64,000 nucleotides of DNA from Ruminococcus sp. (GCA_017384945.1 JAFNSO010000027.1:2931-66930); one strand, 5' to 3'; positions 1 through 16,418 are shown, counted from the stretch's first letter. Made by a program: numbers and translations. Notes: a model not told the origin generated them from the sequence alone.

Positions 1-3000
1 GCGGAAACAGTGGTTGACTTGTTGTAAAGATTCTGACCGTTGAAATCCTTGTAGGGAGTTTCCTCGAGTTCAAAGGTGACGTCGGTCTTGGCGGCATGCA
101 TCTTCTGATTCTCAACAATCGTATCGTTGGGATAATACTCGTCGCCCTCGTTTTCAACGAAGTCTGTTGCGTAAGCAAAGATACGTCCCTTGAAATTAGC
201 CTTTACGGTAAACGAAACCTCGTTGTTCTTGTCGACATTAAAGGTGCCGACCTTCTTCTTTGTGTTGCCCGTCTTATCCATAAGGAAGCAGGTGATTGAT
301 TTTACGCCCGAGCCGTCGCTGTCACCGTCCTCGGCGATATCTGCGGCTGTTACGGTAACCTTTACGTTATCCTTGAAGAAGAAGCTGTAGTCGGTTTCAC
401 TGACCGTCTTGTTGTCCTCTGTTTTTGAAAGCTTTTCGGTTAATTTAGATTTCTTGCTTGTATCAAAATAGAAGCTTGTGATTACGGGTCCAGTTTTATC
501 AAAATGGAATTCAAACTTGTCATTGTACGCGCAGTCATCCTTGTTGAGCTTACCGTCCTTTGTAGTGCTGACGTTGTTGCCCCAAGCGCGAATCTTGATA
601 ACAGACTTACCCTCTTGCTTGTAATCGTCGTCAACGCTGTTGAGGTCGAGCACAACCTTGATTACCGAATACTTCTTGCCCGTATACGCCGAGGGCTTTG
701 TGAACACACCGTTATCGTGGTCGGTGATAAGCGAGCCGGGAGCTTCTGGCTTCATATTTTCATCAAGCTCATAGAACTTGGCGTACTGTGTAACATCAAT
801 TGTTGAACCACTGTTTTCGATGTAAACCGCGATTTTCTGAATCTTTGAGGTTGTATCCTTTACAACCGCCGCGTATGTGAAATCGTCGTTGAACCAGAGG
901 TAGTTTTTGCTGTCCCTGTATCCCTTCTTGGTGACGCTTCCGAGAACGTTAATATCAGGCTTATTTGAGGTCTTTGTCGCGACAATATCGTCAAACGCGT
1001 CAAAGCCCTTAGTAACGTCAATCTCCTTCTCGGCTGAATCAAGAACAACGGATACGTCCTTGTCGTTGTACTTATATTCCTTTGACTTGTTGTCAAAATT
1101 ATCCTTAAGAGAAATCTTGAGCTTATTAAAGAAGCTGTTTTTATCCGAGTTGCCGACCTTGAGCTCGAAGGAGCGTGAGTAATACTCTCTGCCGTCGTCC
1201 TTGTCGTCAAGTCTCTTAAAGGAACCTGCGATCGGAGAAACCTCTCCGTTGGAGTCGTTTGTAAGCGAGATACCGCTTTCGGAAATTCCCGCGGAGGGAG
1301 ACTCGTCGGAAACGATAACCTCAACGAGAATCTTGTTGTTTGAATAGAGACCGAAGGTCAGAAGGTTGAGAATCTGATCGGCGGCGTTGTTGGCGCCCTT
1401 CTTGAATATAACCTTCTCGAGAGTCGGAGCGGATTCATCAATGTTGAAGCCTACCTTGAACTCCTTGGAAACCTCGGAGTTGTTCGTAACCTTAAAGGTG
1501 AGGATGAACGCGCCGCTTGAAACGCCGTAATCGGTCGCGTCGAACTGAGCTACAACCGAGGTCGTCTTTGTTCCGTCGAAATCGGGAGCCGTGGCGTCGG
1601 AAGCGCTCTTCATACATTTGACTCTTACGGGCTTGTCGGTTTTACCTGTCTTTAAGGTCGCTTCCACAGCCTTGATACCCGAGAGCTCGTCAATGAATCT
1701 CGCGCTGATTGTAGCGTGCTTCTTTGATTCCTCGGAGTAGGTTCCGCCGTCATAGTCGCCCTCGCCCGCTCTCGCGTCCTCAAAGTTTTCAAACGCGAAG
1801 CCGTCCTTCTTGGCGTCCTTTACCTTTTCGTCGAAGGTCTTGTCAATCTTGATGTTTTCGGGATCCTTGTTGACTACGATGTCGAACTTGCTGTCGGCGT
1901 CGTGCTTTTCATCGTTGACCTTTGTCTGTGAATCAGCGTAATAGAAGCCCGAATATGAGTTGTTGAGCTTATCCGTTACCGTAACCTTTAAATCCTTGTA
2001 GTTACTGCGCGCGGCGTCTGAGCCCACTGACAGGTCAAATACCTTAACGTACTTGCCGTCCTTGAAGTAAGAGGATGAATTGGATGTATCAGCCTCTACC
2101 TTCTCGCCCTTTTCCGAGGTGAGGAGGATTTTGTCGTACTCAATACCCGACGAGGGAGCTGCGTCAGTGATTGTGACCTCAGCCTTAACCTTTGTTTTTG
2201 AGTAAAGACCGAAGGTGAGAGCGTTGAAGAACGCGTCGGCGGCGGTGCCTTCCTTCTGCGGAATGAACTTGACCTGCTCAACGCTCGGGTTCGTCTCGTC
2301 CACAAGGAACGATACGCCGAAATCAGCCTTTAAGCCGATGTTGTTCTTTACTGTGTATGTGATTGTGTACTCGCCGCTTTCGAGCTTGCCGTCCGCGTTG
2401 AATACGGTATTAACTGATGTTATTTTCTCCGCGCCTGTATTTGCGGGTGTTACGGTGAGAGGAAGCTCTTCCTTGGAATCCTTTTTGCCGTCCTTAGTGA
2501 GCACAGCCTTTACATCGGCGATTCCCGATACGCTGTCAACAAATTTTGCGACAATCTTGCTGCCCTGATTGAAACGGTTGCTGTAGTAAACCTTGTCGCC
2601 TTCCTTGACGGAAGCAAAGTTCTCGAACTCCACCGCGCCGTCGAGGACGATATTTGTCTTGTCGTTGTTGATTACGAGATCGTACTTTTCGTCCGCTTTG
2701 ACTGTCTTGTCCTCGCAGACTACCTCGCCGTCGTAGTATTTAGCCTCAAACTTATTGTTGAACTTATCCTTGACATTGAGGGTGAGATCCTTGTAGTTGC
2801 TCTTGTCTGCCGTTGTACCCGCGGCGAGAGTAAACTCCTTCTTATAAGTTACCTTTTTTCTTGTTTCGTTCTCCGACGAGAAGGTGCTCTCGCCATTGAC
2901 CGACTCGCCCTTGGCGGAGGTAAGCTTTACGTCCTCGCAGAGTATGCGCGCGGACGGCTTTGCGTCGCTTATTGTGACGACCGCCTTCATGGTGCCGTTG

Positions 3001-6000
3001 GAATAGAGACCGAAGCTCAGAATGTTAAGGAGCTTATCGACGTCTGACTGCTCGTAAACAAGCTCGAGCTTTTCAAACTCGGGTGTTGTCTTGTCGATAT
3101 CAAAGTCAACGGAGAACTTCTTCTTCTGACCTACGTTGTTTTTGACTGTGAAGGACAGAGTATAGCTTCCCGTCTCGAGCTTGAGAGCCGAGATGTTGAC
3201 CTTGGCGTCCGCCTTGAGAACCTTTGAGCTTAAAAGGTCGGGAGCTATAACGTCAACCTTTGCGGGAGCCGCGTCGCCCTTAATGATTTCAGCGGTAATC
3301 TCGTTAAGACCCTTGAGCTCGTCGCTGAACTGAGCCGTTACGGTACCGTTGGAGGTCTGAGCGTCGCTGAATATCGCGGTGCCGTCTACGGAGTCGCTGT
3401 AGTCGAAGTTCTCGAACTTAAAGCCGTCCTCAACTACGTCCGCTCCCTTGTCGAACTCTGTGTTGATTTTGATTGTGCTGTCGCTGTTGTTGAGGATAAT
3501 ATCGAAGTTCTTGTCAACCGCCTTATCCTCACCGTTGATTTTAACGTTTGTGCTGTAGTACTTTGCCTTAATCTCGTTCTGGAGATTATCATTGATTGTA
3601 AATACGATATCCTTGTAGTTGCTCTTCGAGATATCGTCGGATACGGAAATGATGAAGTCCTTTGTGTACTTTCCGTCCTTCTGCTTAAAGCTCGCCGCAA
3701 CGGGAGAAACCTTGTAGCCCGCAGCGGAATCGAGGATAACGTCGTTATCGGAAATACCGCATGAGGGATCAGCGTCCTTGATTGTAAGAGTAACCTTAAC
3801 GTCGCTGTCGGAGAAGAGACCGAAGGTGAGAACATTTAAGAGGTTCTGAACAGCCGTTGTCTCAGCGGGAGCGAACGCTACGCTCTCAACAACAGGGGCT
3901 GTCTTGTCGACCGTAAAGTGGCTTGTTACCGTTTTCTTCACGCCGCTGTTGTTGTATACGGTGAACACAGCCTCGTACTCGCCGTCGGGAATACCGTCCT
4001 TATATACGTCCGTTGTCGCAAACTCAATCTTGAGGTCACTTGCCTTTGAGCCGCTCATTGTAGGTGTGAGCTTAGCGGATGTAACCTTGGCGCCGTTGAG
4101 AGTTACCTCGGTCTTATCGGTATCTATGCCCGAGAGTGAATCTCTGATTGTAACAAAGAGCTTGCCGTCCTTGTTTACGAAGAGCTTGTTGCCGTCGGAG
4201 ATAAAAGGAGTTCCGAGGTCATAGCTTACGCCTTCAAATACGTCCTTCTTGTCGCCGCTGTCGGCGGTAATATTTTCAATGTTGGAAGTATTGTTTGAGG
4301 AAACAATCTCGAAGTTCTCGCCGGGAGTAAGAGTCTTTCCGTCAACTGTCGGCTTGAAGTCGGTAATCGGAAGAACAACGTCCTTGCCGTTGCCGATAGC
4401 GTCCTCAACGGTGAATTTGATATTCTTGTAGGAGGAGCTGTTGTTTACGTCGAGCGAGAAGGTGATATTTGCCGACTCCTTCTGAGAAGCGTTTCTTGTA
4501 AGAGTGTCGCCCGAGTGAATGAACTTAACGTTAGTGATACCCGACGACTTGACGACTGAAGAGAGTGTATCGTCAATTTCGAGTTCAACGTCAACGGAAG
4601 AATTGGAATATACTCCGTTGTTGTCGGCGTTTGAAATACTTCCGTTTATTTTTACGCTCTTGATTACGGGAGCGTCGTTATCAACGAAGATTTCCTTTGT
4701 CTTGACCGACTTGTTGCCGGCGTTGTTAACGGCTGTCATACGGAAAATGTATCTTCCGCTCTCAAGCTTGTCTGTTTCGTAGGATACGGGAACCTCCGTC
4801 TCCTTCTTTGTATCGGGAGCGAACGACGCGGCTACCTTGTCGGTAATATTTGTCAGAGCCGCTTCCGCGATATCAACGTCTGACGCAACCTTTCCGAACT
4901 CTACCTTGATTGCGCTGAGACCTGAGTTGTTGTCTGTGAATTTGGAGGTGATTACCGCCTTCTCACCCTTGTAGAAGCCGTTCTTGCTTTCAAGACCCGA
5001 AACCTCTATATTGCTGATATTAACATCATCAAGCGAAGCGAGAATATCGTAAACCTCGGGGTCGTTGTCCGCGGCAACCTGAACGCTGAGGTTCTTGCCC
5101 GACGCCTTGAGCTTGTATACGGAGGAAGAGTTGCCCGCCGTGTCCTTAATCTTGAAGCGAAGGTTAACAAGCTTAGCCGCCTTGGACGCGGGAGCCTTAT
5201 AGAAGTACTTACTGCCCTCGGTCTTGACAAATTTGAGCACGTCGCTGTTAGCTCCGTCAAGAATAATCGCGTTGTCGCTGAGCGGCGAGGGGTTTGCGCC
5301 CTCGTTTACGGCGGTAAAGATAACGGTGAGATCCTCGTTGGAGTAAACGCCGTAATCTCTGTAGTTCTTGCCGTTTTCAACCGCAACCTCGCTTACCGCG
5401 GGAGCCTTGTTGTCGTATTTGATTTCAGCGGTTTCAAAGCTGTCGCTGTTGCCCGCCTTGTCTGTTACTACGATTGTCTTTTTGCCGAAATCGGTAGCTT
5501 CAAAGCTGTAAACACCGCCCTCGGCAGTGAGCTCGTCCTCACCGAGCTTAACTGTGCTTATTCCAGAGCACTCCGTATCGGAGGGATAATCCTTGACCTT
5601 AAAGCTGACCTTTACGGGCTTGTTTGTCCAGTCGGACTCGGAATATGTAAAGCCCTGAGTAAGACGAGGCTTTTCCTTATCAATCTTTACGGGCTTAGTC
5701 GTGATTTCGGTGTGGTTGCCGACACTGTCGGAAATGCTGATGATGTAGGTTGCGTACTCGTCCGCCGTAAAGCTGTAAACCTTGTTTACGGGAGCGAGGG
5801 GCTTGCCGTCGCCCGAATCGGTTGACTTGCGGTATGTAACGGTGCCTACGCCCGAGATATCGTCGGTAATCTTTACGGATACCTTGGAGTTCTTATTTGT
5901 CCAGATTTTATCCGCGTCGTTTTCGTAGGTGATGTCCGCGTCGCCGACCTGAGGAGCGGAATTGTCGATTGTGTATGTCTTTACGGACTCGGACGCGTTT

Positions 6001-7802
6001 CCGCAGTTGTTGACCGCGAGAACCTTGAAGTCATATTTTCCCGACTCAATCGCGGCGGGAACGGTGAATTTGAGAGTCTTGTTCTTTATCTTTGAGGTCT
6101 CGGAATTATCAAGCTTGTCTACCTGAGCGTATTCCGTATCGCCTGTCTTTTTATACATAAGGACAGCCTCTTTGAGACCTACTACCTCGTCCTTTACCTT
6201 TACGGAAATCTCCTTGCCCGCGGGAATCTGAGTAACCGAGGCGTCTCCGTCGGCCTCGAAGTCAAGAATGTCGGGTTTGATTTTCTGAGATATGATAACC
6301 TCAAACGAAACTCTGGACTCATCGTTGAGAAGCTCCTCAACCTTGTCCTTGTTCTTAATCTTTACATATACGCTGTCAGTAAGCATATTGTAGGAAGCGC
6401 TGTTACCCGCCTCGTCGGTGAGCTTGATATTCAAATCATACTTGCCGTCCTCTGTGTCAAGAACAGGAAGCGCAAACTTGTTGCCCGCGCCGCTTAAAGC
6501 GGATGTACCGTTGAGCAAACTGAGAGTCTTTACGGGAGCTCCGTCCTTAGTGTCAACGTCAACAGTCGCGAAAACCTTTCTGTTGTCATACAGACCGAAG
6601 GAAAGCTTTCTGAGCGCGGCGTCTGCGTCGCTTTCATCGGCTGAGAAGGTAACCGTAACGTCCTCTGCCGCGGGAGCGCTCTTGCAAATCTTAAGCTTGC
6701 TCTTTTCGATTGTATAATCAGCGGCCTCGCCCGCGTTGTTATCGTAGGAGACCTTGTAATCCTGCATAGTGTCCGCTACGAAGAAATACTCTCCGCCGCT
6801 TTCGCTTACGGTATAAGCGTTGTTATTTTTAACGCCCTTTACAGACACGGAATTTTTGCTGACGCCCGACTCGTTGTCGCTGAGCTTGAACGTAACCTTG
6901 AGGTTGCCCTTTGTCCACTTGCCTGTCATATCATCCGCGGAGGATGTCGCGGCGTCGGTAATCGAAAGCAGCTCAAAAACAGGAGCGGACTTGTCAATCT
7001 TAACCTTGTCGGTAGCCTTTTCCGTCTTGTAGCCGAACTTATCGGTCAGGGTAACGGTGTAGTTATCATTCTTTTCGGCGATAAAGCTGTACTTTCCGTC
7101 AGAGCTCGAGACAGTGACGTCATCCGAACCGCACTTACAGGACGCCTTGTCAACAATATCTTTATCAGCCTCAAACGTAACCTTTACGTTTTTGTTTGTC
7201 CATGAATTGTTATCTCCGCCGTCGTATTTGAAGTCGCCGATAGCGGGACCCTTCTTTACAACTTCAAAGGTTGTATCAATATCGTTAAAAGGAGTGCCTT
7301 CGGAATTTTTATTGACAAACACAAGACGGTTTACACCCTCCTTAAGACCGCTTTGCAACGCCTTTTCAACGTCAACGGTAAGGGTGATGTTACCTTCGCT
7401 GTCCTTTTCCGCCTTGTAGCCCTCAGGCTTACAAACCTCCATCTGATTAGCTAATTTGCTCTTCAAATCTATTTTAAGAGAAAGTGTTTCAGGCTTTGAG
7501 GGATCAAATTCCGCGGCGGTTTTCGGGAAAAACCTGTAATAAAGCTTCTTGACCTTTCCTCCGTCGAAATAATAATTCTTACCGTTTGAATTTTTAACGG
7601 CGTAAGCCTCATCGTCAGCAAACAGCTCATAGCTCTTTGTTACGCCCGAGCCTGTTTTGATACGAGGTTTTTTCTCATCGGGAGTCGCGATTTTAGCGGA
7701 GCCCGAAATAACGGGAGCGACAAAAAGCGTACCCGTAACAATTAAAACCGAGAGAAGCGCGGCAATTGTTTTTCGCAGCGCGTTTAAGCTTTTTCTTCTC
7801 AT
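1..7802 (-). CDS. Giant secreted Ig-like repeat surface protein (>2600 aa; 3' end outside the window)
   Basis: Not in the ORF track, consistent with no stop codon in the window. ATG at 7802 overlaps the upstream stop (ATGA) with AGGAG RBS near 7810-7814. N-terminus MRRKSLNALRKTIAALLSVLIVTGTLFVAPVISGSA is signal-peptide-like. Repeated Ig-like boundaries (IDKSAPV, IDNSAPQ, YDNKAPA, VDNDAPV, D/NxAGN). The same frame is still open at position 3 (...KDFNGQNLYNKSTTVS). Confidence 0.88.
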   Translation of the reverse strand, partial: MRRKSLNALRKTIAALLSVLIVTGTLFVAPVISGSAKIATPDEKKPRIKTGSGVTKSYELFADDEAYAVKNSNGKNYYFDGGKVKKLYYRFFPKTAAEFDPSKPETLSLKIDLKSKLANQMEVCKPEGYKAEKDSEGNITLTVDVEKALQSGLKEGVNRLVFVNKNSEGTPFNDIDTTFEVVKKGPAIGDFKYDGGDNNSWTNKNVKVTFEADKDIVDKASCKCGSDDVTVSSSDGKYSFIAEKNDNYTVTLTDKFGYKTEKATDKVKIDKSAPVFELLSITDAATSSADDMTGKWTKGNLKVTFKLSDNESGVSKNSVSVKGVKNNNAYTVSESGGEYFFVADTMQDYKVSYDNNAGEAADYTIEKSKLKICKSAPAAEDVTVTFSADESDADAALRKLSFGLYDNRKVFATVDVDTKDGAPVKTLSLLNGTSALSGAGNKFALPVLDTEDGKYDLNIKLTDEAGNSASYNMLTDSVYVKIKNKDKVEELLNDESRVSFEVIISQKIKPDILDFEADGDASVTQIPAGKEISVKVKDEVVGLKEAVLMYKKTGDTEYAQVDKLDNSETSKIKNKTLKFTVPAAIESGKYDFKVLAVNNCGNASESVKTYTIDNSAPQVGDADITYENDADKIWTNKNSKVSVKITDDISGVGTVTYRKSTDSGDGKPLAPVNKVYSFTADEYATYIISISDSVGNHTEITTKPVKIDKEKPRLTQGFTYSESDWTNKPVKVSFKVKDYPSDTECSGISTVKLGEDELTAEGGVYSFEATDFGKKTIVVTDKAGNSDSFETAEIKYDNKAPAVSEVAVENGKNYRDYGVYSNEDLTVIFTAVNEGANPSPLSDNAIILDGANSDVLKFVKTEGSKYFYKAPASKAAKLVNLRFKIKDTAGNSSSVYKLKASGKNLSVQVAADNDPEVYDILASLDDVNISNIEVSGLESKNGFYKGEKAVITSKFTDNNSGLSAIKVEFGKVASDVDIAEAALTNITDKVAASFAPDTKKETEVPVSYETDKLESGRYIFRMTAVNNAGNKSVKTKEIFVDNDAPVIKSVKINGSISNADNNGVYSNSSVDVELEIDDTLSSVVKSSGITNVKFIHSGDTLTRNASQKESANITFSLDVNNSSSYKNIKFTVEDAIGNGKDVVLPITDFKPTVDGKTLTPGENFEIVSSNNTSNIENITADSGDKKDVFEGVSYDLGTPFISDGNKLFVNKDGKLFVTIRDSLSGIDTDKTEVTLNGAKVTSAKLTPTMSGSKASDLKIEFATTDVYKDGIPDGEYEAVFTVYNNSGVKKTVTSHFTVDKTAPVVESVAFAPAETTAVQNLLNVLTFGLFSDSDVKVTLTIKDADPSCGISDNDVILDSAAGYKVSPVAASFKQKDGKYTKDFIISVSDDISKSNYKDIVFTINDNLQNEIKAKYYSTNVKINGEDKAVDKNFDIILNNSDSTIKINTEFDKGADVVEDGFKFENFDYSDSVDGTAIFSDAQTSNGTVTAQFSDELKGLNEITAEIIKGDAAPAKVDVIAPDLLSSKVLKADAKVNISALKLETGSYTLSFTVKNNVGQKKKFSVDFDIDKTTPEFEKLELVYEQSDVDKLLNILSFGLYSNGTMKAVVTISDAKPSARILCEDVKLTSAKGESVNGESTFSSENETRKKVTYKKEFTLAAGTTADKSNYKDLTLNVKDKFNNKFEAKYYDGEVVCEDKTVKADEKYDLVINNDKTNIVLDGAVEFENFASVKEGDKVYYSNRFNQGSKIVAKFVDSVSGIADVKAVLTKDGKKDSKEELPLTVTPANTGAEKITSVNTVFNADGKLESGEYTITYTVKNNIGLKADFGVSFLVDETNPSVEQVKFIPQKEGTAADAFFNALTFGLYSKTKVKAEVTITDAAPSSGIEYDKILLTSEKGEKVEADTSNSSSYFKDGKYVKVFDLSVGSDAARSNYKDLKVTVTDKLNNSYSGFYYADSQTKVNDEKHDADSKFDIVVNKDPENIKIDKTFDEKVKDAKKDGFAFENFEDARAGEGDYDGGTYSEESKKHATISARFIDELSGIKAVEATLKTGKTDKPVRVKCMKSASDATAPDFDGTKTTSVVAQFDATDYGVSSGAFILTFKVTNNSEVSKEFKVGFNIDESAPTLEKVIFKKGANNAADQILNLLTFGLYSNNKILVEVIVSDESPSAGISESGISLTNDSNGEVSPIAGSFKRLDDKDDGREYYSRSFELKVGNSDKNSFFNKLKISLKDNFDNKSKEYKYNDKDVSVVLDSAEKEIDVTKGFDAFDDIVATKTSNKPDINVLGSVTKKGYRDSKNYLWFNDDFTYAAVVKDTTSKIQKIAVYIENSGSTIDVTQYAKFYELDENMKPEAPGSLITDHDNGVFTKPSAYTGKKYSVIKVVLDLNSVDDDYKQEGKSVIKIRAWGNNVSTTKDGKLNKDDCAYNDKFEFHFDKTGPVITSFYFDTSKKSKLTEKLSKTEDNKTVSETDYSFFFKDNVKVTVTAADIAEDGDSDGSGVKSITCFLMDKTGNTKKKVGTFNVDKNNEVSFTVKANFKGRIFAYATDFVENEGDEYYPNDTIVENQKMHAAKTDVTFELEETPYKDFNGQNLYNKSTTVS

Positions 7803-8272
7803 TTTCTACTCTCCTTCTGGTTATTTAAAAAATTAATATATATAAAATTTATTCCGTTAAACAGACCGTGCATATGCACCGAAGCCAACAGCAAGGCAAT
7901 CAGAATAATCCAGACTGTCTGGCTGATAACAGGAACAAATATAAAAACCAAATTCAGAATAATTAAGAATATCAGCAGTATATCAATAACAAAAGCGGGC
8001 TTATTGCTGAAGAAACACAGAAAACCGGGTCTTCGGTAGGACGAGCGGTTTTTTTGCGCCGCTCTTCTGTGAGAGTTGATGATAAACAACAGAATGTAGC
8101 CGTAAACCATTCCGCCCCAAAAAAGGACTCCCGCCGCGACGGCGATAATAACATTAAACGCATTGCCCTCATAATTGCCTATAAAAGTAAGTAAAATTGA
8201 AAATGCCGAAATAATTAAAGAAATTACCGATTGCTTAAAAAGAAATACGTCTTTTTTCAAGATTTCCTCCAA
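7799..8272 (-). CDS. Multi-pass (about 4 TM) membrane protein, unknown function
   Basis: Four hydrophobic segments; stop overlaps the giant ORF start; start codon (TTG) uncertain. Confidence 0.7.
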   Translation of the reverse strand: MEEILKKDVFLFKQSVISLIISAFSILLTFIGNYEGNAFNVIIAVAAGVLFWGGMVYGYILLFIINSHRRAAQKNRSSYRRPGFLCFFSNKPAFVIDILLIFLIILNLVFIFVPVISQTVWIILIALLLASVHMHGLFNGINFIYINFLNNQKESRK

Positions 8273-8338
8273 AAATCACCTAATGATAAAAGTCAAGTCA
8301 CCCCAACAACGGCAAAAAGCCGCTGTTGAGGAAAAAAC

Positions 8339-8932
8339 TTATAGTATCTCGTCGGAATTTATGAGCATAACTTCCTTCTTAACGGTAAAGTGAATGCTCT
8401 CCGACACATTCGGATTATTTGCCTTGAGGTTCTCGTCCGTGGAAGGATTGAGATTAACCTCGCTGAGAACGGTTGTCTCGTTGAATACAGGCTGCGGCGA
8501 AGCCGTGTTCTGCTGAGAAACGTCTTCGTTCTGAGCGAGAACGCTCGTCTGATTATCGCCGTAGTTATCATCCTGAGACAAAACACTCGTCTGCTCCGAG
8601 CCGTAGCCCGCGGGCTGAGAAGACGCGGGGGCGCCGGTCTCCGTTTTCGGAGGCGGAACAACCGCGGGAGCTCTGCCCTTTTTCTTTCTCTTCTCGGAAA
8701 GCTCTGTTGTCATTGTCTTGCCGTCGACCCTGAGTCTGCCTGTGCTGGCGTTAGCCTTCTGCATCTGGCTCACGGTCTTTGCCTTGGCGCGGCCTGTTTT
8801 CATATCAAAAATCGATTTGATATCGAAAACTATAAAGAGAATGACAGTAATTATGAAAAACAGAATACAGAATGAAAGCGAAACAATGAAGCAGGTATTT
8901 AAAATACCGATTACAGAGGTATCCGCGCCCAT
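8339..8932 (-). CDS. Single-TM membrane protein with a low-complexity tail carrying three (E/Q)T(T/S)VL motifs
   Basis: N-terminal hydrophobic helix; EQTSVL, NQTSVL and NETTVL motifs; start overlaps the kinase stop. Confidence 0.8.
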   Translation of the reverse strand: MGADTSVIGILNTCFIVSLSFCILFFIITVILFIVFDIKSIFDMKTGRAKAKTVSQMQKANASTGRLRVDGKTMTTELSEKRKKKGRAPAVVPPPKTETGAPASSQPAGYGSEQTSVLSQDDNYGDNQTSVLAQNEDVSQQNTASPQPVFNETTVLSEVNLNPSTDENLKANNPNVSESIHFTVKKEVMLINSDEIL

Positions 8933-10647
8933 TATTCATCCCCTCCTTCCATATCCGGCTTAACGTTACCGTAACCGTTTTCCTTGGCTTGTTTTAGGTT
9001 TTCGGTGATATTGTTTACAATTTCCGAGTTACGGAGGATTGTATTCTGGTCGGAGAACTTAGGATCCGCCTGAACAGCGTCGACACTTGCCTTCAAGGTA
9101 TCGATAAGCGAATAGAAATTGTTCTCGGAAATACCGTTTTTGTAAAGAACATCGTTACGGGTAGCAAGCTCGTTGGCGACAAACTTGTAGCCGAGCAACG
9201 CGACCTTTATGTTATCGGTTCGAATAATATCGGCGGAGGAAAGCTCCTGCAGCGCCTTGAAATACTCGCTGACGTCAAATGACGTGTCACCCGAAATATC
9301 ATTTTCCTTTTCGTAGCTGTCGGAGATAACCTTAAGTCTCTTTGCTCTGTCAACCCTTTTGGGGTCGTTTGAATTTTCGATAACCTTATTAAGCCACTTG
9401 CTCGCCATAAGGATTCCCGCGTGTGTGCTGTCCTCCTTGAGGCCGTCGGTGCTGTACCCGAACATCAGCAGATTCGCGAGATCGTAGGCAAACTCATTTC
9501 CGAAGGCAGCCTTGTCCTTGGCGATAAGCTCAGACTCGTGAATCGACTCAATGTTAAGGAGATCATTTTTCTCGTCAGGTGTGATAAGGTCGTCGCTCTT
9601 GTAAATATTCAAAAGCTCGTTGTAAGCTTTAATGTTGTCGGGTTCCATCTCGACAGCCTGCTTGAGCATTTTCTCGTCCTGTTTGTTTACGCCCTGAGTA
9701 ACGAGAGAGTCGTAGGTGGACGCCTGCATTGAGTTGCCCGCGACTGTAAAGCAAACCGAAGCGATTCCCAGAACAACCGTCAGAATAAGGGAGGTCAAAA
9801 ACACCTTCCACTTAATCGACTGAACCCTTTTGTTTTCAATGTCGAGGTCCTTGTAGTGGTCGAGCGCATATAGAAGCTCGGCGCAGGACTGGTAGCGGTC
9901 GTCGGGGTTACGCTGTGTACATTTTGTGATAATCTCCTCGAGACCCGATGAAAGATTCGGGTTCCACTGGCGTATGGGATACATCTCATACGGAGGAGTA
10001 CATGGATTGTGACCTGTAACGAGATGATACATGGTCGCGCCGAGACAGTAAATATCCGTTCTCGCGTCGGTCTGACCGTGACCTCCGTATTGCTCGGGAG
10101 CCGCGTAGCCCTGCGTACCGAGGCAGGTGGTATCCTCGACGCTGGACGACTTGAACTCACGAGCCGTACCGAAGTCAATAAGCGAGACGTTACCGTCCGG
10201 CTTAAGCATAACGTTGGCGGGCTTCATATCTCGGTAGATAATCGGAGGCTTGCGGGAGTGGAGGTATCCGAGTACGTCGCACAGCTGCTTTGACCACTCG
10301 ATTACGTCGTCCTGACTCTGAGCGCCCTTTTCGAGAGCCTTGCTCAGAGAGTTACCCTCGATATAATCCATAACGATGAGGAAGCTTCCGTCGCCGTCTA
10401 TTACATCAATAATACTGGGAAGGTTGGGGTGGTTAAATCTTTTCAGAAGGTCGGTCTCAACAATAAGGTTCTGCTTTACGACCTCAAAATTCTGAACGCC
10501 GTCCTTTCGGACCTCTTTTATTGCCCAGATTTTGTTCGCGCGCTCGTTTACCGCCTGGTAAACAACGCTCATTCCGCCCTTACCTACAACTCTGAGTATT
10601 TTATATTTTCCGTCTACTATAGAACCAATTTCAAGCATACCGTTCAC
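8932..10647 (-). CDS. Hanks-type Ser/Thr protein kinase with TM helix and extracellular helical domain
   Basis: GKGGMSVV, AIK, YRDMKPAN, DFG and APE motifs intact; TM segment VFLTSLILTVVLGIASVCF; no PASTA repeats seen. Confidence 0.95.
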   Translation of the reverse strand: MNGMLEIGSIVDGKYKILRVVGKGGMSVVYQAVNERANKIWAIKEVRKDGVQNFEVVKQNLIVETDLLKRFNHPNLPSIIDVIDGDGSFLIVMDYIEGNSLSKALEKGAQSQDDVIEWSKQLCDVLGYLHSRKPPIIYRDMKPANVMLKPDGNVSLIDFGTAREFKSSSVEDTTCLGTQGYAAPEQYGGHGQTDARTDIYCLGATMYHLVTGHNPCTPPYEMYPIRQWNPNLSSGLEEIITKCTQRNPDDRYQSCAELLYALDHYKDLDIENKRVQSIKWKVFLTSLILTVVLGIASVCFTVAGNSMQASTYDSLVTQGVNKQDEKMLKQAVEMEPDNIKAYNELLNIYKSDDLITPDEKNDLLNIESIHESELIAKDKAAFGNEFAYDLANLLMFGYSTDGLKEDSTHAGILMASKWLNKVIENSNDPKRVDRAKRLKVISDSYEKENDISGDTSFDVSEYFKALQELSSADIIRTDNIKVALLGYKFVANELATRNDVLYKNGISENNFYSLIDTLKASVDAVQADPKFSDQNTILRNSEIVNNITENLKQAKENGYGNVKPDMEGGDE

Positions 10648-10648
10648 C

Positions 10649-11416
10649 TCACGCTGTCTTTACTAACAAGACAGTAATATTATCGAGCTCCTGTCTGTAC
10701 TTGTTGAGCTCGGTAAGATAAACCGCGTTATCGTTCATCGACTGTTCGTTTACAAGAACATACGGATTGAGTCTCTCGTAAATCTCGTCGGAGGAGATGA
10801 TGTGTCTGAAACCGTCGGAGCAAAGCATATACACCTCGCCCGTATGAACGTCGCCCGAGAAGAAATCCGGTTCTATAAAATTGCTGGCTCCGATGCACTG
10901 GAGCAAAACATTCCTCTGAGGACTGTTTTTTGCCTCCTCGTAGGTCATTCTGCCCATATCCATCTCGCGCTGTACAAATGTCTGATCCTTAGTAAGCTGA
11001 ACCAGACTGTCCGAAATTCTGTACGCGCGTGAGTCGCCTATGTTAATGATATAGTACTTATCACCGAGAATCAAAAGCGCTATGAGGGTAGTACCCATGG
11101 TAACGCTGTTTTTTGCCGAGTAGTCATGGATTCTGTCGTTGCAGCCGAAAGCGATTTTCTCCCACGAGCTGAATATTCTGTCCTTCGGGTCAGAAAGAGT
11201 CATAATCTCGGGGAGTTGAGTGTAGAACCACTCCTTGAACGAGCGGATAACAACCGCGCTCGCAACCTCGCCCTTCGCGAGACCGCCCATTCCGTCACAT
11301 ATAACAGCAAGCAAAACATTCCCGACGTCGGACTTGGCCTCGAGCAAAAGAGCCGAATCCTGATTGGTGCTTTTTTTGATACCTATATCAGTATGAACCG
11401 CTGTCAAAAATTCCAT
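10649..11416 (-). CDS. PP2C/PPM-family Ser/Thr protein phosphatase
   Basis: NQD, ICDGMGG, GTT, NIGDSR, CSDG and DNIT motifs; probable start at MEFLTAVHTD (11416). Confidence 0.93.
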   Translation of the reverse strand: MEFLTAVHTDIGIKKSTNQDSALLLEAKSDVGNVLLAVICDGMGGLAKGEVASAVVIRSFKEWFYTQLPEIMTLSDPKDRIFSSWEKIAFGCNDRIHDYSAKNSVTMGTTLIALLILGDKYYIINIGDSRAYRISDSLVQLTKDQTFVQREMDMGRMTYEEAKNSPQRNVLLQCIGASNFIEPDFFSGDVHTGEVYMLCSDGFRHIISSDEIYERLNPYVLVNEQSMNDNAVYLTELNKYRQELDNITVLLVKTA

Positions 11417-11590
11417 AATAACAAATCTTTCCGCCCGCAGCTTCATTTATCCGGCTTACGCGGGCGGGTAAGGTCGGATTAAGGAAAAAAACGTTTCCCG
11501 ATAAAGCTGCCCATAAAACAGCCTTAACTCAGCTTGCCGAAAAACGGCAAGCTGAGTATAAATCTTAGTTAAAGATTAAAGCTTTTTAAA

Positions 11591-13081
11591 TCAGCCCAAG
11601 AACTCGAACTCTTCGTCGGAAACCTTAATTGTGTCGCCCTTGGAAAGTACAACCTCCTGATTCGGGCTTACTCTTGTTCCGTTTACGTATGTGCAGTTTG
11701 TGGAGTTGAGGTCGGTGATGTAGCATCTGCCGCCGCGAACCTTAATCTTGCAGTGAGCGCGGCTGATTGAGTTGTTGTCGCTGATGCAGTAGTCTACTCT
11801 TCTTCTCTCTTTACCGATGATGAACTCGTTCTTGTTGATAGCGATTGTCTCGCTGTTTCTCTTTCTGCGGAGTGAGAAGCCCTGAGCCTGACCGCCGAGT
11901 ACGGTTGTCTCGCCCGCGCCCTCGCCGAGAACGCTTGTCTCTCCGGCTCCGTCATTGGACGGCATTGTCGGAGGAACGGGAGGTACTCTTCCGCCTACAG
12001 GAGGTACGGGAGGTGTCGGAGGAGGCATCATCGGGCCGTTGCCGCCGTTGCCGCCTGACTTCTTCTTGCTGTTAACAATAATAAGGATAACAACAACTAC
12101 TATGATAACAGCTACTACAGCGATAGCAATAATAATGATAAGAGTGGGATCAAAACCACCTTCACCGCCGTTGTTAACTTCTGTCGGAGCCTCTGTTGCT
12201 ATGGGAGCGAGAGTTGTCTCCTCAGCAACAGTTGTCTCTTCCTCGCCAGCCTTGGTCTCATCAGTCGTGTTTCCATCGGGTGTCTGATACTCTATACCGA
12301 GGTCGTCAAGAGCCGCCTTAACCTGATCGATGGCTACGGCATACTGGAATGTTTGGTCATCAAATCCCATCTTTGTAATGCCGACAACATTACCGTCGCT
12401 GTCAACAAGAGGACCGCCCGAGTTGCCGCCCTGAATGGCTGTATCGAACTGAACGTACTTTGTTCCCGAATTATCAACAAGATTGGAAACAGTAGAGCTT
12501 GTGATTGAAAGCTTTTCGTCTGTGTAAGTGATGCTGTCCTGTAACCACTTTGCGGATCCGGGATATCCGAGGATGTGGACAGGCTGAGTCTTTTCAAGAG
12601 ATCCGCTGTCACCGAGAACAACAGGGTCTCTCTTGACAGTGCTGTTGAGGGTGAGGATAGCGTAGTCGGAAGCGCTGGAGTTCTTGAGTGTAGCGTTAAC
12701 GAGCATACCGCCGTTAACCGTTACGGCGTAGGAGAGCTTTGAGGGGTTGAACTTAAAGTCGTCATAACCCTTATCGGCGTAATACTCTTTCAGCGCGACG
12801 CCGAGCTCTGACTTTGCAGTGATAACGTGCTGACATGTAAGAATGGTTGTTGAGTTGATAAGGAAGCAGGAGCCTGAGGGCAGATAAGCCGCGGGCATAC
12901 CTGAACCCGGATCGTACAGGAAGTTGATCTGAAGTACGCTCTTCTTTACATTTACAACAGCCTCATTCGCCTTGCCTTCGGCTGACGCTGAAATCGCTAC
13001 CGAAAATACTAAGGAAAGCGCAAGTACAAGCGCAATAACCAAGCTTAGTATTCTCTTGGTGTGTACTTTTGAATGTTTCAT
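11591..13081 (-). CDS. Signal peptide + trypsin-like serine protease + TM + Pro-rich linker + C-terminal FHA domain
   Basis: Catalytic triad context LTCQHV / SDYAIL / GNSGGP; long TM segment; FHA motifs IGK..SISRAH..NSTN..VNG. Confidence 0.9.
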   Translation of the reverse strand: MKHSKVHTKRILSLVIALVLALSLVFSVAISASAEGKANEAVVNVKKSVLQINFLYDPGSGMPAAYLPSGSCFLINSTTILTCQHVITAKSELGVALKEYYADKGYDDFKFNPSKLSYAVTVNGGMLVNATLKNSSASDYAILTLNSTVKRDPVVLGDSGSLEKTQPVHILGYPGSAKWLQDSITYTDEKLSITSSTVSNLVDNSGTKYVQFDTAIQGGNSGGPLVDSDGNVVGITKMGFDDQTFQYAVAIDQVKAALDDLGIEYQTPDGNTTDETKAGEEETTVAEETTLAPIATEAPTEVNNGGEGGFDPTLIIIIAIAVVAVIIVVVVILIIVNSKKKSGGNGGNGPMMPPPTPPVPPVGGRVPPVPPTMPSNDGAGETSVLGEGAGETTVLGGQAQGFSLRRKRNSETIAINKNEFIIGKERRRVDYCISDNNSISRAHCKIKVRGGRCYITDLNSTNCTYVNGTRVSPNQEVVLSKGDTIKVSDEEFEFLG

Positions 13082-13507: not shown

Positions 13508-13536
13508 ATTCTACACGATTTTTCGTTTATTGTCAA
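13508..13536 (-). promoter_or_regulatory. Sigma-A promoter of the Cro-like gene with a palindromic operator-like site in the spacer
   Basis: TTGACA (13536-13531), 17 bp, TAGAAT (13513-13508); ACGA-TTTT-TCGT palindrome at 13515-13526. Confidence 0.7.
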
Positions 13537-13647
13537 CATTTTACATAAAATCTGAATAATTTTTTGAAAAAAATATAACAGATATTTGCAACTTTAACAT
13601 TTTACTAAATTGCTTTGCGTTTTATTATTCAAGAAAGGAGCATAAAA

Positions 13648-14013
13648 ATGAATAAAGATTACTCATTGATTTCATCGGAAAATGTCAAAACACTTCTCTC
13701 AAGAAACAGAATGTCCGTCCGTCAATTGGCGGAGCTGCTCGGAATCGCTCCGACAACGCTCAACGACTCGCTGAAAAGCAAAAAAGGTGTCTCGATAGAT
13801 AACCTTATAAAAATCGCGGAATTTTTTAATCTCAGCGTAAACGATTTGTGCGACCCAAGGCTGTTTGAATTTAACAGCAGCAAGATGACCCCCTGTGACG
13901 AGCTTGTCAGAAAATACAAGCTTCTAGACGACCACGGAAAGGCCTTGGTTTCTACGGTTCTCAGCCTTGAGTACCGACGCTGTATTTCGGGACATAAAAA
14001 TAAGCTTAGCTGA
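13648..14013 (+). CDS. XRE-family HTH repressor (CI/ImmR-like, no S24 peptidase domain)
   Basis: MSVRQLAELLGIAPTTL..SIDNLIKIAEFFNLSVNDL; C-terminal LVRKYKLLDDHGK helix; AAGGAG RBS at 13635-13640. Confidence 0.88.
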   Translation: MNKDYSLISSENVKTLLSRNRMSVRQLAELLGIAPTTLNDSLKSKKGVSIDNLIKIAEFFNLSVNDLCDPRLFEFNSSKMTPCDELVRKYKLLDDHGKALVSTVLSLEYRRCISGHKNKLS

Positions 14014-14090: not shown

Positions 14091-16418
14091 TTATATTGTA
14101 TAGAGCTTCACTTCGTCGTCCTCGACCGAGGCGCTGATCGCGCCGAGCTCTCCGTCGCGGTGAGCTATGAGCACGTTTGTAATCTTGTCCTCGATGTTCT
14201 TGCGGATGAAGTTGCGAAGGTCGCGCGCTCCGCTTGTACCCGAGCCCGCCTTCTGAGCAACAAGGGAGCAGACATTTTCGTCATAGGTAAAGCGTATTCC
14301 CTTTTCGGCCAGCGGCTCAACGTACTCATCAAGCATAAGCGCGGCGATTTTCCCGTAGTCGTCCATATTGAGCGAGCGGAAAACGATAATCTCGTCGACA
14401 CGCGCGATAAACTCGGGACGAAGGAAGTCTCTGAGTCCCTTCATCGCTCTCTCCTTAACTACGTCGTCCTCCTGCTTGCCGAAGCCGAGGGCGTTCTCGC
14501 GCCTTTCGGAGCCCGCGTTGGAGGTCATAACGATTACGGTATTCTCAAAGCTTACGCTCCTGCCGTGGGCGTCGGTGACTCTGCCCTCGTCGAGAATCTG
14601 CAAAAGGATGTTGAGCACGTCGGGATGAGCCTTCTCTATCTCGTCAAAAAGGAGCACCGAGTACGGACGGCGTCTGACCTTTTCGGTCACCTGACCCGCC
14701 TCGTCGTAGCCGACGTAGCCCGGGGGTGAGCCGATAATCTTGGAGACCGAGTGCTTTTCCATAAACTCGGACATATCGAGTCTGATAAGTGTCTCGGGGG
14801 TGTCAAAGAGCTGCTGTGAGAGAACCTTTACGAGCTCTGTTTTTCCGACTCCCGTGGGACCCACAAAGATGAAAGACGCGGGTCGTCTGCGCGGGGAGAT
14901 CTGCACTCTGCTTCTTCTGATAGCGGCGGAGAGAGCTTCGACAGCCTCGTCCTGACCGATGATTTTCTTCTTGAGCTCGCTCTCCAAATCGGCGAGCTTG
15001 CTGAGCTCGTTCTCTCTGATACGGCTCGAGGGGATTCCCGTCCAAAGCTCGATTACCTTGGCGATGTCCTCCTCCTCAACGGGAGCGTTGACCTTTGCCA
15101 TATCGATTTCGGAGAGCTCCTTATCGGTTCGTGCGATTTTTGAACGGACGTCGGCGATCGCCTCGTAGTTCTTCTCGTCCTCCCCCTCAAGCTCGGTGAG
15201 CTGAGCTCCGAACGCCGCCTTTGAAAGCATAAGCCTGTCGTAGCGCTCCATTTCCTTGTTGCGAAGAGCGGCGCACGCGCAGCTTTCGTCGAGAAGGTCG
15301 ATCGCCTTGTCGGGCAGGAATCGGTCGTTGATGTAGCGCTCGGAGAGAACAACCGTCTTTCGGACGATATCGTCGTTGACCTGAACACGGTGGTGAGCCT
15401 CGTAGTAGCCCTTGACTCCCTTGATGACCTCGATCGTCTCGGCAATTGAGGGCTCGCCAACCTTGACGGGCTGGAAACGGCGCTCAAGAGCGGAGTCCTT
15501 TTCGATGTATTTTCTGTATTCGTTGAAGGTCGTGGCGCCGATCACCTGAACCTCGCCTCTTGAGAGAGCGGGCTTGAGTATGTTCGCGGCGTTCATCGTA
15601 CCCTCGTTGTCGCCTGTTCCGACGAGAGAATGAACCTCGTCGATAAAGATTATGATATTCCCGGCTTCCTTTATTTCAGCCATAAGACCCTTCATACGGC
15701 TCTCAAACTGACCTCTGAACTGGGTTCCCGCGACAAGCGCGGTGAGGTCGAGCATATAAATCTCCTTGCCGCTGAGCCTGAGCGGGACTCTTCCCGCGGC
15801 AATTCTCAGCGCGAGTCCCTCGGCGATAGCCGTTTTACCGACTCCGGGCTCGCCTATGAGACAGGGGTTGTTCTTGCTTCTGCGCGAAAGAATCTGAATA
15901 ACGCGCTCGATTTCCTTGTCTCGTCCGATAATGTTGTCGATTCTGCCGTTTTTTGCCTTTTCGGTCAGGTTCTCGCAATAGAGGTTGAGGTGCTTGCGCT
16001 TTTTGTCGTTCTTGCTCTTGCCGCGGCGGCGCTCCTTTTTATCGGAGCCTGAGTTCTCGCCCTGATTGTTGTTTCCGAAAAGATTGTTGAAAAACGGGAA
16101 GGTCGGAGCTCCTCCGGGGGTGAAGTTTCCGTTGTCCTCGTTCTGCTCCTCAAACTTTTCCATCTGCTCGGCAAGGTTTTCGACGTTCATCGACTCCATC
16201 ATCTGCTTCATCGAATCGTCGTTCATAAGATTGTCCATCTGATCCTGAACCATCTCGAGGTCGTCGTCGGAAAGACCCATCTTGCTGATTAAATCCTCGA
16301 CGGGCTTGATTCCGAGCTCCTTCGCGCACGTAAGGCAGTAGCCCATTGTCGCGTCCGAGCTTGTGTTCTGTGATACAAAGACCACGGCGGGTCTTTTTCC
16401 GCATTTACTGCAAATCAT
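14091..16418 (-). CDS. ATP-dependent Clp protease ATP-binding subunit (ClpC/ClpE-like, N-terminal Zn finger)
   Basis: CxxC..CxxC N-terminus; Walker A motifs GEPGVGKT and GPTGVGKT; LGF ClpP-docking loop. Confidence 0.93.

Follow-up and report, generated by a model that had tools for sequence, protein, structure and literature searches.

Gene neighbourhoods in RefSeq were used by Garrett, Higginson and Palmer (microLife 2024) to define, among type VII secretion systems (T7SS), subtypes T7SSc to T7SSj (PMC11217815). T7SSd, T7SSe and T7SSj possess a membrane kinase, TsxD, whose extracellular domain is either helical or built of TPRs, together with TsxF, which is a PPM phosphatase, a protein with a single transmembrane (TM) helix and an unstructured cytoplasmic tail (TsxH), a zinc-ribbon protein with a single TM helix (TseK) and a DUF6382-FHA protein (TsxJ), and the FHA domains of their EssC proteins retain the consensus for phosphothreonine (pThr) binding (PMC11217815). 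TsxI, a large, Sec-exported immunoglobulin (Ig)-like protein that has its TM helix at the C terminus, was proposed to extend across the envelope, and "reverse" lipase effectors were noted at a T7SSe locus; Ruminococcus and Lachnospiraceae are not mentioned in that study (PMC11217815). In Actinomycetales, the Esx-linked Esr (epibiont sensing and response) pathway reportedly consists of a surface filament of Ig repeats exported by Sec, of kinases and a phosphatase, and of an FHA output protein that is phosphorylated on threonine in a disordered region upstream of the FHA domain, and experiments are reported to show that it controls Esx (bioRxiv 2026, PMC13622651). Here we describe six genes at the beginning of a 64,000-nucleotide (nt) stretch of Ruminococcus sp. 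DNA (GCA_017384945.1, JAFNSO010000027.1:2931-66930; G000:C7:2931-66930 in our numbering), which we call the window and within which positions are counted unless a contig or locus is named. From their sequences and those of the genes that follow, we consider it quite likely that the six genes are the promoter-proximal half of one cluster of ~32 kb encoding a T7SSe/j-like T7SS equipped with a kinase, a phosphatase and FHA domains.

All six open reading frames (ORFs) are on the minus strand, spanning positions 13081 to 1. The first gene (11591-13081) encodes a 496-amino acid (aa) protein with Pfam and NCBIfam matches (TrpFHA; protease-FHA hereafter). It is followed by the genes for a TsxF-like PP2C/PPM Ser/Thr phosphatase (10649-11446; NCBIfam Stp1/IreP-type PP2C, E 2e-53) and for STK1, a TsxD-like Hanks-type Ser/Thr kinase of 571 aa (8932-10647; Pkinase, E 8e-48). 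The next two products were characterized by sequence and hydropathy: p197, a TsxH-like protein of 197 aa that has its TM helix at the N terminus and contains (Q/E)T(S/T)VL motifs at three places (8339-8932), and p157, a protein of 157 aa with four TM helices (7799-8272). The last gene (1-7802) encodes a TsxI-like giant Ig-repeat protein, of whose 3294 aa the first 2600 are encoded in the window, and it ends at C7:848. The genes of STK1 and p197 overlap by 1 nt (TAATG), the stop codon of p157 overlaps the start codon of the giant protein by 4 nt (ATGA), and the PP2C and STK1 genes are ~1 nt apart. A first-pass annotation of this DNA had proposed that several of the genes are translationally coupled; the overlaps indicate that the coupling is real for STK1/p197 and p157/giant. 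Protease-FHA and PP2C are separated by a gap of at least 144 nt, and p197 and p157 by 66 nt.

The gene for a second kinase (STK2) begins directly downstream of the giant gene and continues off the end of C7. In reverse complement, this end shares 26 nt with the beginning of contig C70, an overlap that is unique in the assembly and in frame (…ALENIKKQ…), and the join yields a 635-aa kinase with a TPR ectodomain. The adjacency of C7 and C70 is based on this overlap and on colinear relatives. The genes that follow on C70 are all on the same strand and continue the operon. After STK2 come ZnR123, a zinc-ribbon protein with a single TM helix; TPR510, a TM/TPR/CarboxypepD_reg membrane protein; a first small TM-FHA protein; and an EssC-type ATPase of 1654 aa (L050:3793-8757), in which an FHA domain is N-terminal, hydrophobic segments lie around residues 266-324 and FtsK_SpoIIIE matches two stretches (E 9e-52). 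These are followed by a LytTR regulator, a 221-aa protein (p221), YukD (E 2.7e-6, above the cut-off), two WXG100 proteins (E 6.5e-12 and 9.6e-15), a second small TM-FHA protein and, at L050:13596-15899, a 438-aa lipase with an Mbeg1/Lipase_3 N-terminal part and a WXG100-like C-terminal part, together with three small WXG-like ORFs. The lipase and these ORFs are predicted to be a "reverse" lipase effector and its partner proteins, as reported for T7SSb and T7SSe. An FtsK-SpoIIIE-type membrane ATPase, WXG100 proteins and a YukD/EsaB-like protein, by which a T7SS is recognized, are thus present together, and in the whole cluster four proteins share five FHA domains, next to a single phosphatase and two kinases that look active. 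The first-pass annotation had placed six co-oriented genes at positions 13081 to 1, which we confirmed for all six ORFs, and its secreted Ig-repeat protein of more than 2600 aa is indeed present, with a signal peptide and an Ig string over 3294 aa on the full contig. Its view of an undescribed, stand-alone system had to be abandoned, since the flank past position 1 is a T7SS cluster and belongs to a kind of secretion system whose components were described as T7SSd/e/j in 2024 (PMC11217815).

Nine of the ten T7SSe components are found in the cluster by domain or architecture, the missing one being the DUF6382-FHA protein. The FHA-bearing EssC-type ATPase, the two WXG100 proteins and YukD correspond to those of T7SSe, as do STK1 (TseD-like, with a helical ectodomain and an intact active site), PP2C (TseF/TsxF-like) and the "reverse" lipase effector with its small WXG-like partners. 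Comparison of architecture with the published descriptions matched p197 to TseH and ZnR123 to TseK, and the giant protein was matched to TseI (Sec export, Ig repeats, C-terminal TM helix) by architecture and by the names of BLAST hits in PMC11217815. The cluster differs from T7SSe in having two kinases rather than one, in its extra components (the two small TM-FHA proteins, the 4-TM protein coupled to the giant protein, the TPR/CarboxypepD_reg membrane protein and the LytTR regulator) and in its hosts, which are uncultured Ruminococcus-like and Lachnospiraceae bacteria. STK2, with its TPR ectodomain, resembles the TsjD kinase of T7SSj, but T7SSj is distinguished by a TPR kinase with no TseH orthologue, and the TseH-like p197 is present here. 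The TPR repeats of STK2 and the presence of p197 therefore indicate that the cluster mixes features of e and j. The details that we regard as new are the exchange of DUF6382 for a protease, the invariant tandem threonines of the protease-FHA tail, the 4-TM protein coupled to TsxI as its partner, and the presence of a second kinase.

The cluster recurs in related bacteria. Scanning species-representative genomes with an alignment of protease-FHA homologues yielded 48 loci. The order protease-FHA, PP2C, kinase, p197, p157, giant was observed in about 35 of the 48 loci (species-level genomes), in records labelled Ruminococcus, Lachnospiraceae, Coprococcus, Oscillospiraceae or Clostridia, which agrees with the earlier proposal that kinase, phosphatase and FHA protein form a dedicated module linked to the giant protein. 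In five loci the giant gene is followed by a second kinase. Locus L040 is from a Lachnospiraceae record without a MAG (metagenome-assembled genome) label and may represent an isolate. In G001 and G004, single contigs carry giant, STK2, zinc-ribbon, TPR510, TM-FHA, EssC, LytTR, p221, YukD, two WXG100 and TM-FHA genes, as on C70. EssC lies 15-21 kb downstream of protease-FHA on the same strand in nine of 15 genomes (G001, G004, G005, G006, G007, G009, G010, G013 and G014), the linkage having been read on the sequence in G001, G004 and G005; with G015, in which the distance is 2.4 kb, the linked total is ten. The conserved neighbourhood persists despite a rearranged order in G005 and G015. The G015 locus (L042:7676-21743), from a record labelled "Bacteroides sp.", is a distant variant in which a 448-aa ORF and two small ORFs precede protease-FHA, which is followed by a 191-aa TM protein, EssC, LytTR, WXG100 genes and another FHA protein. 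The locus has no kinase, PP2C or giant gene, and a search of the genome with the C-terminus of the giant protein as the query found no homologue, suggesting that the protease goes with the secretion machine and not with the giant protein. With one genome per genus of the host's GTDB family, protease-FHA matches of E <= 1e-20, mostly to the motif and FHA tail, were found in six of 120 sampled genera, indicating that the cluster is accessory and patchy. In G010, the genome of locus L018, the EssC orthologue (G010:C87:39461-44452) is interrupted by two in-frame stop codons, a TGA and a TAG, which may reflect either a pseudogene or errors in the assembly.

Protease-FHA consists of a signal peptide, a Trypsin_2 domain (E 2e-25), a TM helix (~312-338) and an FHA domain (E 1e-18). 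In an AlphaFold2 model built from 74 sequences, the protease and FHA domains (predicted local distance difference test score, pLDDT, >90) are joined via the TM helix and disordered linkers (pLDDT <50). A Foldseek search superposed the protease domain on HtrA1/HtrA3 (TMt about 0.82), with DegS, DegQ and MarP next, and the same proteins are nearest in sequence. Among 120 homologues with 39-100% identity, the catalytic His, Asp and Ser are kept in 120, 120 and 119, respectively. The Pfam scan detected no PDZ domain. The ectodomain, having a chymotrypsin fold and the triad without a PDZ domain, is HtrA-like (S1C) and not a canonical HtrA/DegP protease. At least 1017 proteins in a large protein collection match the protease-FHA query, and the best 120 all have trypsin and FHA domains. 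Directly before the FHA domain are tandem pThr-type motifs, ETSVL (aa 381-385) and ETTVL (aa 391-395), encoded at 11897-11941 on the minus strand, of which T382, L385, T392 and L395 are invariant in all 120 homologues; S440, R441, H443, N462, N467 and G468 of the FHA domain are likewise invariant. The tail, T-motif region included, is 42% identical over 117 aa to a DUF6382-FHA protein encoded on contig C34 of the same genome, and is much nearer to it than to the other FHA domains of the genome. The FHA part of TseJ also resembles the protease-FHA family. We therefore read protease-FHA, from its sequence, as a TsxJ-type adaptor in which an extracellular protease and a TM helix have apparently taken the place of the N-terminal domain.

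The enzymes of phosphorylation appear intact. K44, D140, N145, D158 and the APE motif of STK1 are invariant in 37 orthologues, the catalytic residues of STK2 in four, and the DGMGG, GDSR, SDG and DN motifs of PP2C in 41. The true start of PP2C is likely the ATG that lies 30 nt farther downstream, which would give a protein of 255 aa, matching its relatives. STK1 has one TM helix (~280-307) and a helical ectodomain of 260 aa, in which the Pfam scan found no PASTA domain; the PASTA kinase of this genome is encoded elsewhere, on contig C5, so that the module is distinct from PrkC, as the first-pass annotation had stated. In p197, the N-terminal TM helix leads into a juxtamembrane segment and then a disordered region in the cytoplasm; the juxtamembrane segment is conserved, as is a strand-like peptide at the C terminus. 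A motif search located its T-motifs at aa 114 (QTSVL), aa 128 (QTSVL) and aa 152 (ETTVL), encoded at 8465-8593 on the minus strand. In 30 orthologues the TM helix, the juxtamembrane segment and the C-terminal peptide are kept, together with zero to four strict motifs and looser T-x-x-L words, the leucine at +3 from the threonine being recurrent. The pattern [EQ]T[TS]VL occurs six times in the genome (six-frame ORFs of >=100 aa, 1.19 million residues), and five of the six occurrences are in p197 and protease-FHA. p197 is a candidate kinase substrate and a candidate docking scaffold for FHA domains. The FHA domains of EssC and of the TM-FHA proteins FHA178 and FHA170 have the canonical GR / SxxH / NG residues. 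Two other assignments were rejected: a phage-defence kinase, because the MADS6/PglW matches are at the domain level only, and a cell-division module of the FhaA/FhaB/PknB/PstP type, because rodA and pbpA are missing and an FHA-FtsW/RodA gene lies separately on contig C71.

The giant protein begins with a Sec signal peptide, continues as a long array of Ig-like domains and closes with a C-terminal TM helix and a KKRKR tail. Its sequence contains no LPXTG motif, and a sortase/LPXTG-anchored adhesin was rejected because the protein ends in the TM helix. The C-terminal 655 aa are the most conserved part, with more than 1300 homologues, including Bacillales proteins named "Ig-like domain repeat protein"; "carboxypeptidase regulatory-like domain-containing protein" is also among the names of homologues. 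AlphaFold2 modelled the C-terminal 693 aa as about seven Ig-like domains and the TM helix, which Foldseek matched to Ig strings of the titin and contactin type; both analyses returned a generic Ig rod with no special domain. The distal part varies in length and sequence, the orthologues ranging from roughly 1100 to 3300 aa (loci in which the gene is complete or nearly so). A weak feature search with the N-terminal 450 aa gave Ig-like neighbours only, at borderline scores, and a self-BLAST for internal repeats gave no matches. The word L-x-x-L-(T/S)-F-G-L-(Y/F), also written LNxL(T/S)FGL(Y/F), occurs four times, at aa 397, 1322, 1592 and 2145, and might correspond to a linker between domains, an insertion or a site of processing. 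p157 has no Pfam or NCBIfam family, and its Atlas neighbours were uninformative; it is kept at the same position in about 30 loci, with an identical overlap with the giant gene in L002.

These observations suggest how a T7SS of this kind might be controlled. STK1 and STK2 would phosphorylate the invariant threonines of the (E/Q)T(T/S)VL motifs on p197 and on the tail of protease-FHA, and the resulting pThr marks would be bound by the FHA domains of protease-FHA, the two TM-FHA proteins and EssC, so that the translocon is assembled or activated; PP2C would reset the phosphorylation state. The giant Ig fibre would stand next to the machine, fixed there by the TM helix and the conserved Ig rod close to the membrane, probably with the help of the coupled 4-TM p157, and would extend far past the wall, where it could touch targets or act in sensing. 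Having about 30 domains of Ig size, the protein should project well outside the wall, which makes contact or sensing likelier than a mere conduit through the wall. The HtrA-like ectodomain would be a protease that is anchored in the membrane and works on the outer side of the machine, in a position analogous to that of the mycosin MycP of T7SSa, and its possible substrates are the giant fibre, secreted substrates and damaged envelope proteins. A bolder version of this proposal, which we offer tentatively and consider doubtful as a whole, is that protease-FHA is a core component of a Clostridia T7SS and a convergent counterpart of mycobacterial mycosin, whose position at the outer face, or whose activity on the TsxI fibre or on secreted substrates, is gated from the cytoplasm by the kinases and the phosphatase at the two invariant threonines.

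Several points weigh against the assignment to a phosphorylation-controlled T7SSe/j-like system. The DUF6382-FHA protein TseJ of T7SSe is absent here, and the TsxJ-type T-motif and FHA tail is instead fused via a TM helix to an HtrA-like protease. The assignment to T7SSe/j was made from gene content, and the subtype is provisional. In seven of the ten genomes with linked EssC, the identity of the contig was inferred from matching coordinates alone, and in five of the 15 no linked EssC was found, the contigs ending or the metagenome-assembled genomes (MAGs) being incomplete: EssC is on a separate contig in G002, the linkage is uncertain in G012, and no EssC-type match was obtained with the query used in G003, G008 and G011. 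As these five genomes are MAGs, the missing linkage is not evidence of absence. With respect to phosphorylation, the pThr-binding arginine of the canonical "GR" is replaced with lysine in 119 of the 120 protease-FHA homologues, and the strict motif is missing in some p197 orthologues. In the AlphaFold2 model the T-motifs, in a region with pLDDT <50, are undocked on the FHA domain, by which binding in cis is neither supported nor excluded.

Among the alternatives, the strongest places the giant protein at the start of the signal. Its Ig fibre would sense a competitor, phage or epibiont distally, in the manner of Esr, and signal through the kinases to the FHA outputs, leading to T7SS activity and LytTR-driven transcription. 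This idea is compatible with a kinase-controlled T7SS and differs from it in taking the giant protein as a sensor rather than as a structural or adhesive part. The Esr pathway in Actinomycetales (PMC13622651) is a precedent and makes the sensor role a serious rival; moreover, the tail of protease-FHA, with disordered T-motifs and then FHA, has the layout of the Esr output protein, the distal part of the giant protein is variable while its membrane-proximal part is conserved, and a LytTR regulator is encoded inside the cluster. However, the Esr hallmarks MoxR, vWA, transglutaminase and the beta-propeller tip were not found by Pfam scans of the cluster proteins, and the N-terminal 450 aa, where such a tip might be expected, look Ig-like in the weak feature search. 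We hold the sensor role to be possible, and would not yet choose it over the T7SS with a structural or adhesive fibre.

The first-pass annotation had offered a different role for the protease, in which pThr read by the FHA domain controls the extracellular protease, which in turn processes, releases or positions the giant protein, as a pThr-based analogue of LapD/LapG/LapA; within a T7SS, this would mean that the protease trims the TsxI fibre. The strict co-inheritance of the protease-FHA and giant genes in about 35 genomes, the intact catalytic triad and the predicted location of the ectodomain and the giant protein on the same outer face of the membrane are in favour of such a role. The likeness to the Lap system, in which a giant adhesin is acted on by a periplasmic or surface protease under control from inside the cell, is conceptual only: Pfam and NCBIfam scans of the six proteins detected none of the domains of LapD (the cyclic di-GMP receptor), the LapG cysteine protease or the type I secretion/RTX adhesin. 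Furthermore, the module is not autonomous and belongs to a T7SS cluster, protease-FHA is found beside EssC in G015 with neither a kinase gene in the locus nor a giant homologue detectable with our query, and the sequence reveals neither a cleavage site nor a mechanism. The Lap-like control was therefore not upheld, and we regard trimming of the fibre within the T7SS as unlikely.

Alternatively, the signal might run from outside to inside, the PDZ-less HtrA-like ectodomain detecting damaged or unfolded envelope proteins, as in DegS and MarP, and tuning the firing of the T7SS through the FHA tail. The nearest folds and sequences of the protease domain, described above, fit this idea. So does the published link between envelope damage and secretion, which has been made for T7SSb (IreK, as cited in PMC11217815) and for activation of the H1-T6SS, a type VI secretion system (T6SS) (PMC13713981). 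On the other hand, a single TM helix between long disordered linkers offers no evident route for conformational signalling, and neither a PDZ nor another peptide-sensing domain is present, which makes this sensor rather improbable. Finally, a chance association of the six genes with the downstream T7SS genes, to which the 144-nt gap with a hairpin after the first gene and the patchy distribution might be taken to point, is highly improbable in view of the colinearity across taxa labelled as different families, persisting in the rearranged G005 and G015, and of a component set that matches the published T7SSe.

The gap between protease-FHA and PP2C contains a perfect 13-bp hairpin (ACTCAGCTTGCCG / CGGCAAGCTGAGT, loop TTTTT; 11521-11551, minus strand), read directly from the sequence, which may be an attenuator or an RNA-stability element; in relatives this gap is only about 13-18 nt and the hairpin is not present. 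The best sigma-70-like promoter match, TTGACA-17-TAGAAT (11/12; 13508-13536, minus strand), is a consensus match upstream of protease-FHA and is the probable promoter of the operon. It lies between protease-FHA and a divergent gene for an XRE-type helix-turn-helix protein (13615-14013, plus strand), which may be a local regulator of the cluster. Farther upstream is a gene for a 775-aa ClpC/ClpB-like double AAA+ ATPase (14091-16418, minus strand), likewise found upstream in the relative L007; it is probably a housekeeping gene marking the boundary of the cluster. At the far end of the T7SS cluster, a gene for a BspA-type leucine-rich-repeat lipoprotein-like protein is on the opposite strand (L050:16676-17671, minus strand).

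A second T7SS-like locus was observed on contig C34 (L051:1-9398). It includes a PP2C gene truncated where the contig stops, a TM/TPR protein with weak similarity to the ectodomain of STK1, a 126-aa paralogue of p197 (p126) with the same C-terminal peptide, an FHA-EssC of 1573 aa, a YukD-sized ORF and WXG-like genes. The DUF6382-FHA protein of this locus has a GTSVLGE word before its FHA domain, and DUF6382 occurs nowhere else in the genome. The C34 locus resembles T7SSf; no kinase is encoded on the contig, and the locus may depend on the kinases of the C7/C70 cluster. On contig C71 (6481-8154, plus strand), a 557-aa protein has an N-terminal FHA domain fused to a polytopic membrane protein that looks FtsW/RodA-like, as judged by sequence and not by domain scan. 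It would be another likely client of threonine phosphorylation in this genome.

The T7SS variants with kinase, phosphatase and FHA components are known only from comparative genomics. The present locus provides handles for asking how phosphorylation controls them: a short threonine motif that is nearly confined to this locus and is carried by two membrane proteins, together with five FHA domains, two kinases and one phosphatase. Contact-dependent competition has received little study in the rumen and gut Ruminococcus-like bacteria and Lachnospiraceae where the cluster is patchily distributed.

Four known systems help to place the locus. The comparison with PpkA/PppA/Fha1 (TagH), already drawn in the first-pass annotation, is apt: both have a Hanks kinase that sits in the membrane and exposes an extracytoplasmic domain, along with a PP2C phosphatase and readers of the FHA type, and in the T6SS threonine phosphorylation gates assembly of a secretion machine. 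The present system differs in being a T7SS in a monoderm, with several membrane-anchored FHA proteins, one of them fused to a protease, and with no T6SS genes. GarA/OdhI-type proteins share the conserved ETT/ETS threonine motif in a disordered segment adjoining an FHA domain of the same polypeptide, which invites binding in cis or in trans. Here, in contrast, the motif is tandem, N-terminal to the FHA domain and on a membrane protein, the context is secretion rather than metabolism, and the canonical arginine is replaced with lysine. The Esr pathway is similar in its Ig-repeat surface filament, kinases, phosphatase, FHA protein with threonines in a disordered region and genetic tie to a T7SS, and differs in phylum and in that the filament here is held by a TM helix. 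The mycosin MycP of T7SSa is a Sec-exported, extracytoplasmic serine protease with a single TM helix (PMC11217815), and, like protease-FHA, is a membrane-anchored protease that T7SS clusters encode as a conserved component. MycP belongs to the subtilisins (S8) and its cytoplasmic tail is short, whereas protease-FHA has an S1C HtrA-like fold and a long tail with pThr-type motifs and an FHA domain. The parallel thus appears to be one of position and logic rather than of homology, and protease-FHA would give a second and independent example of a T7SS with a built-in, membrane-anchored serine protease, which bears on why mycosins are needed in mycobacteria.

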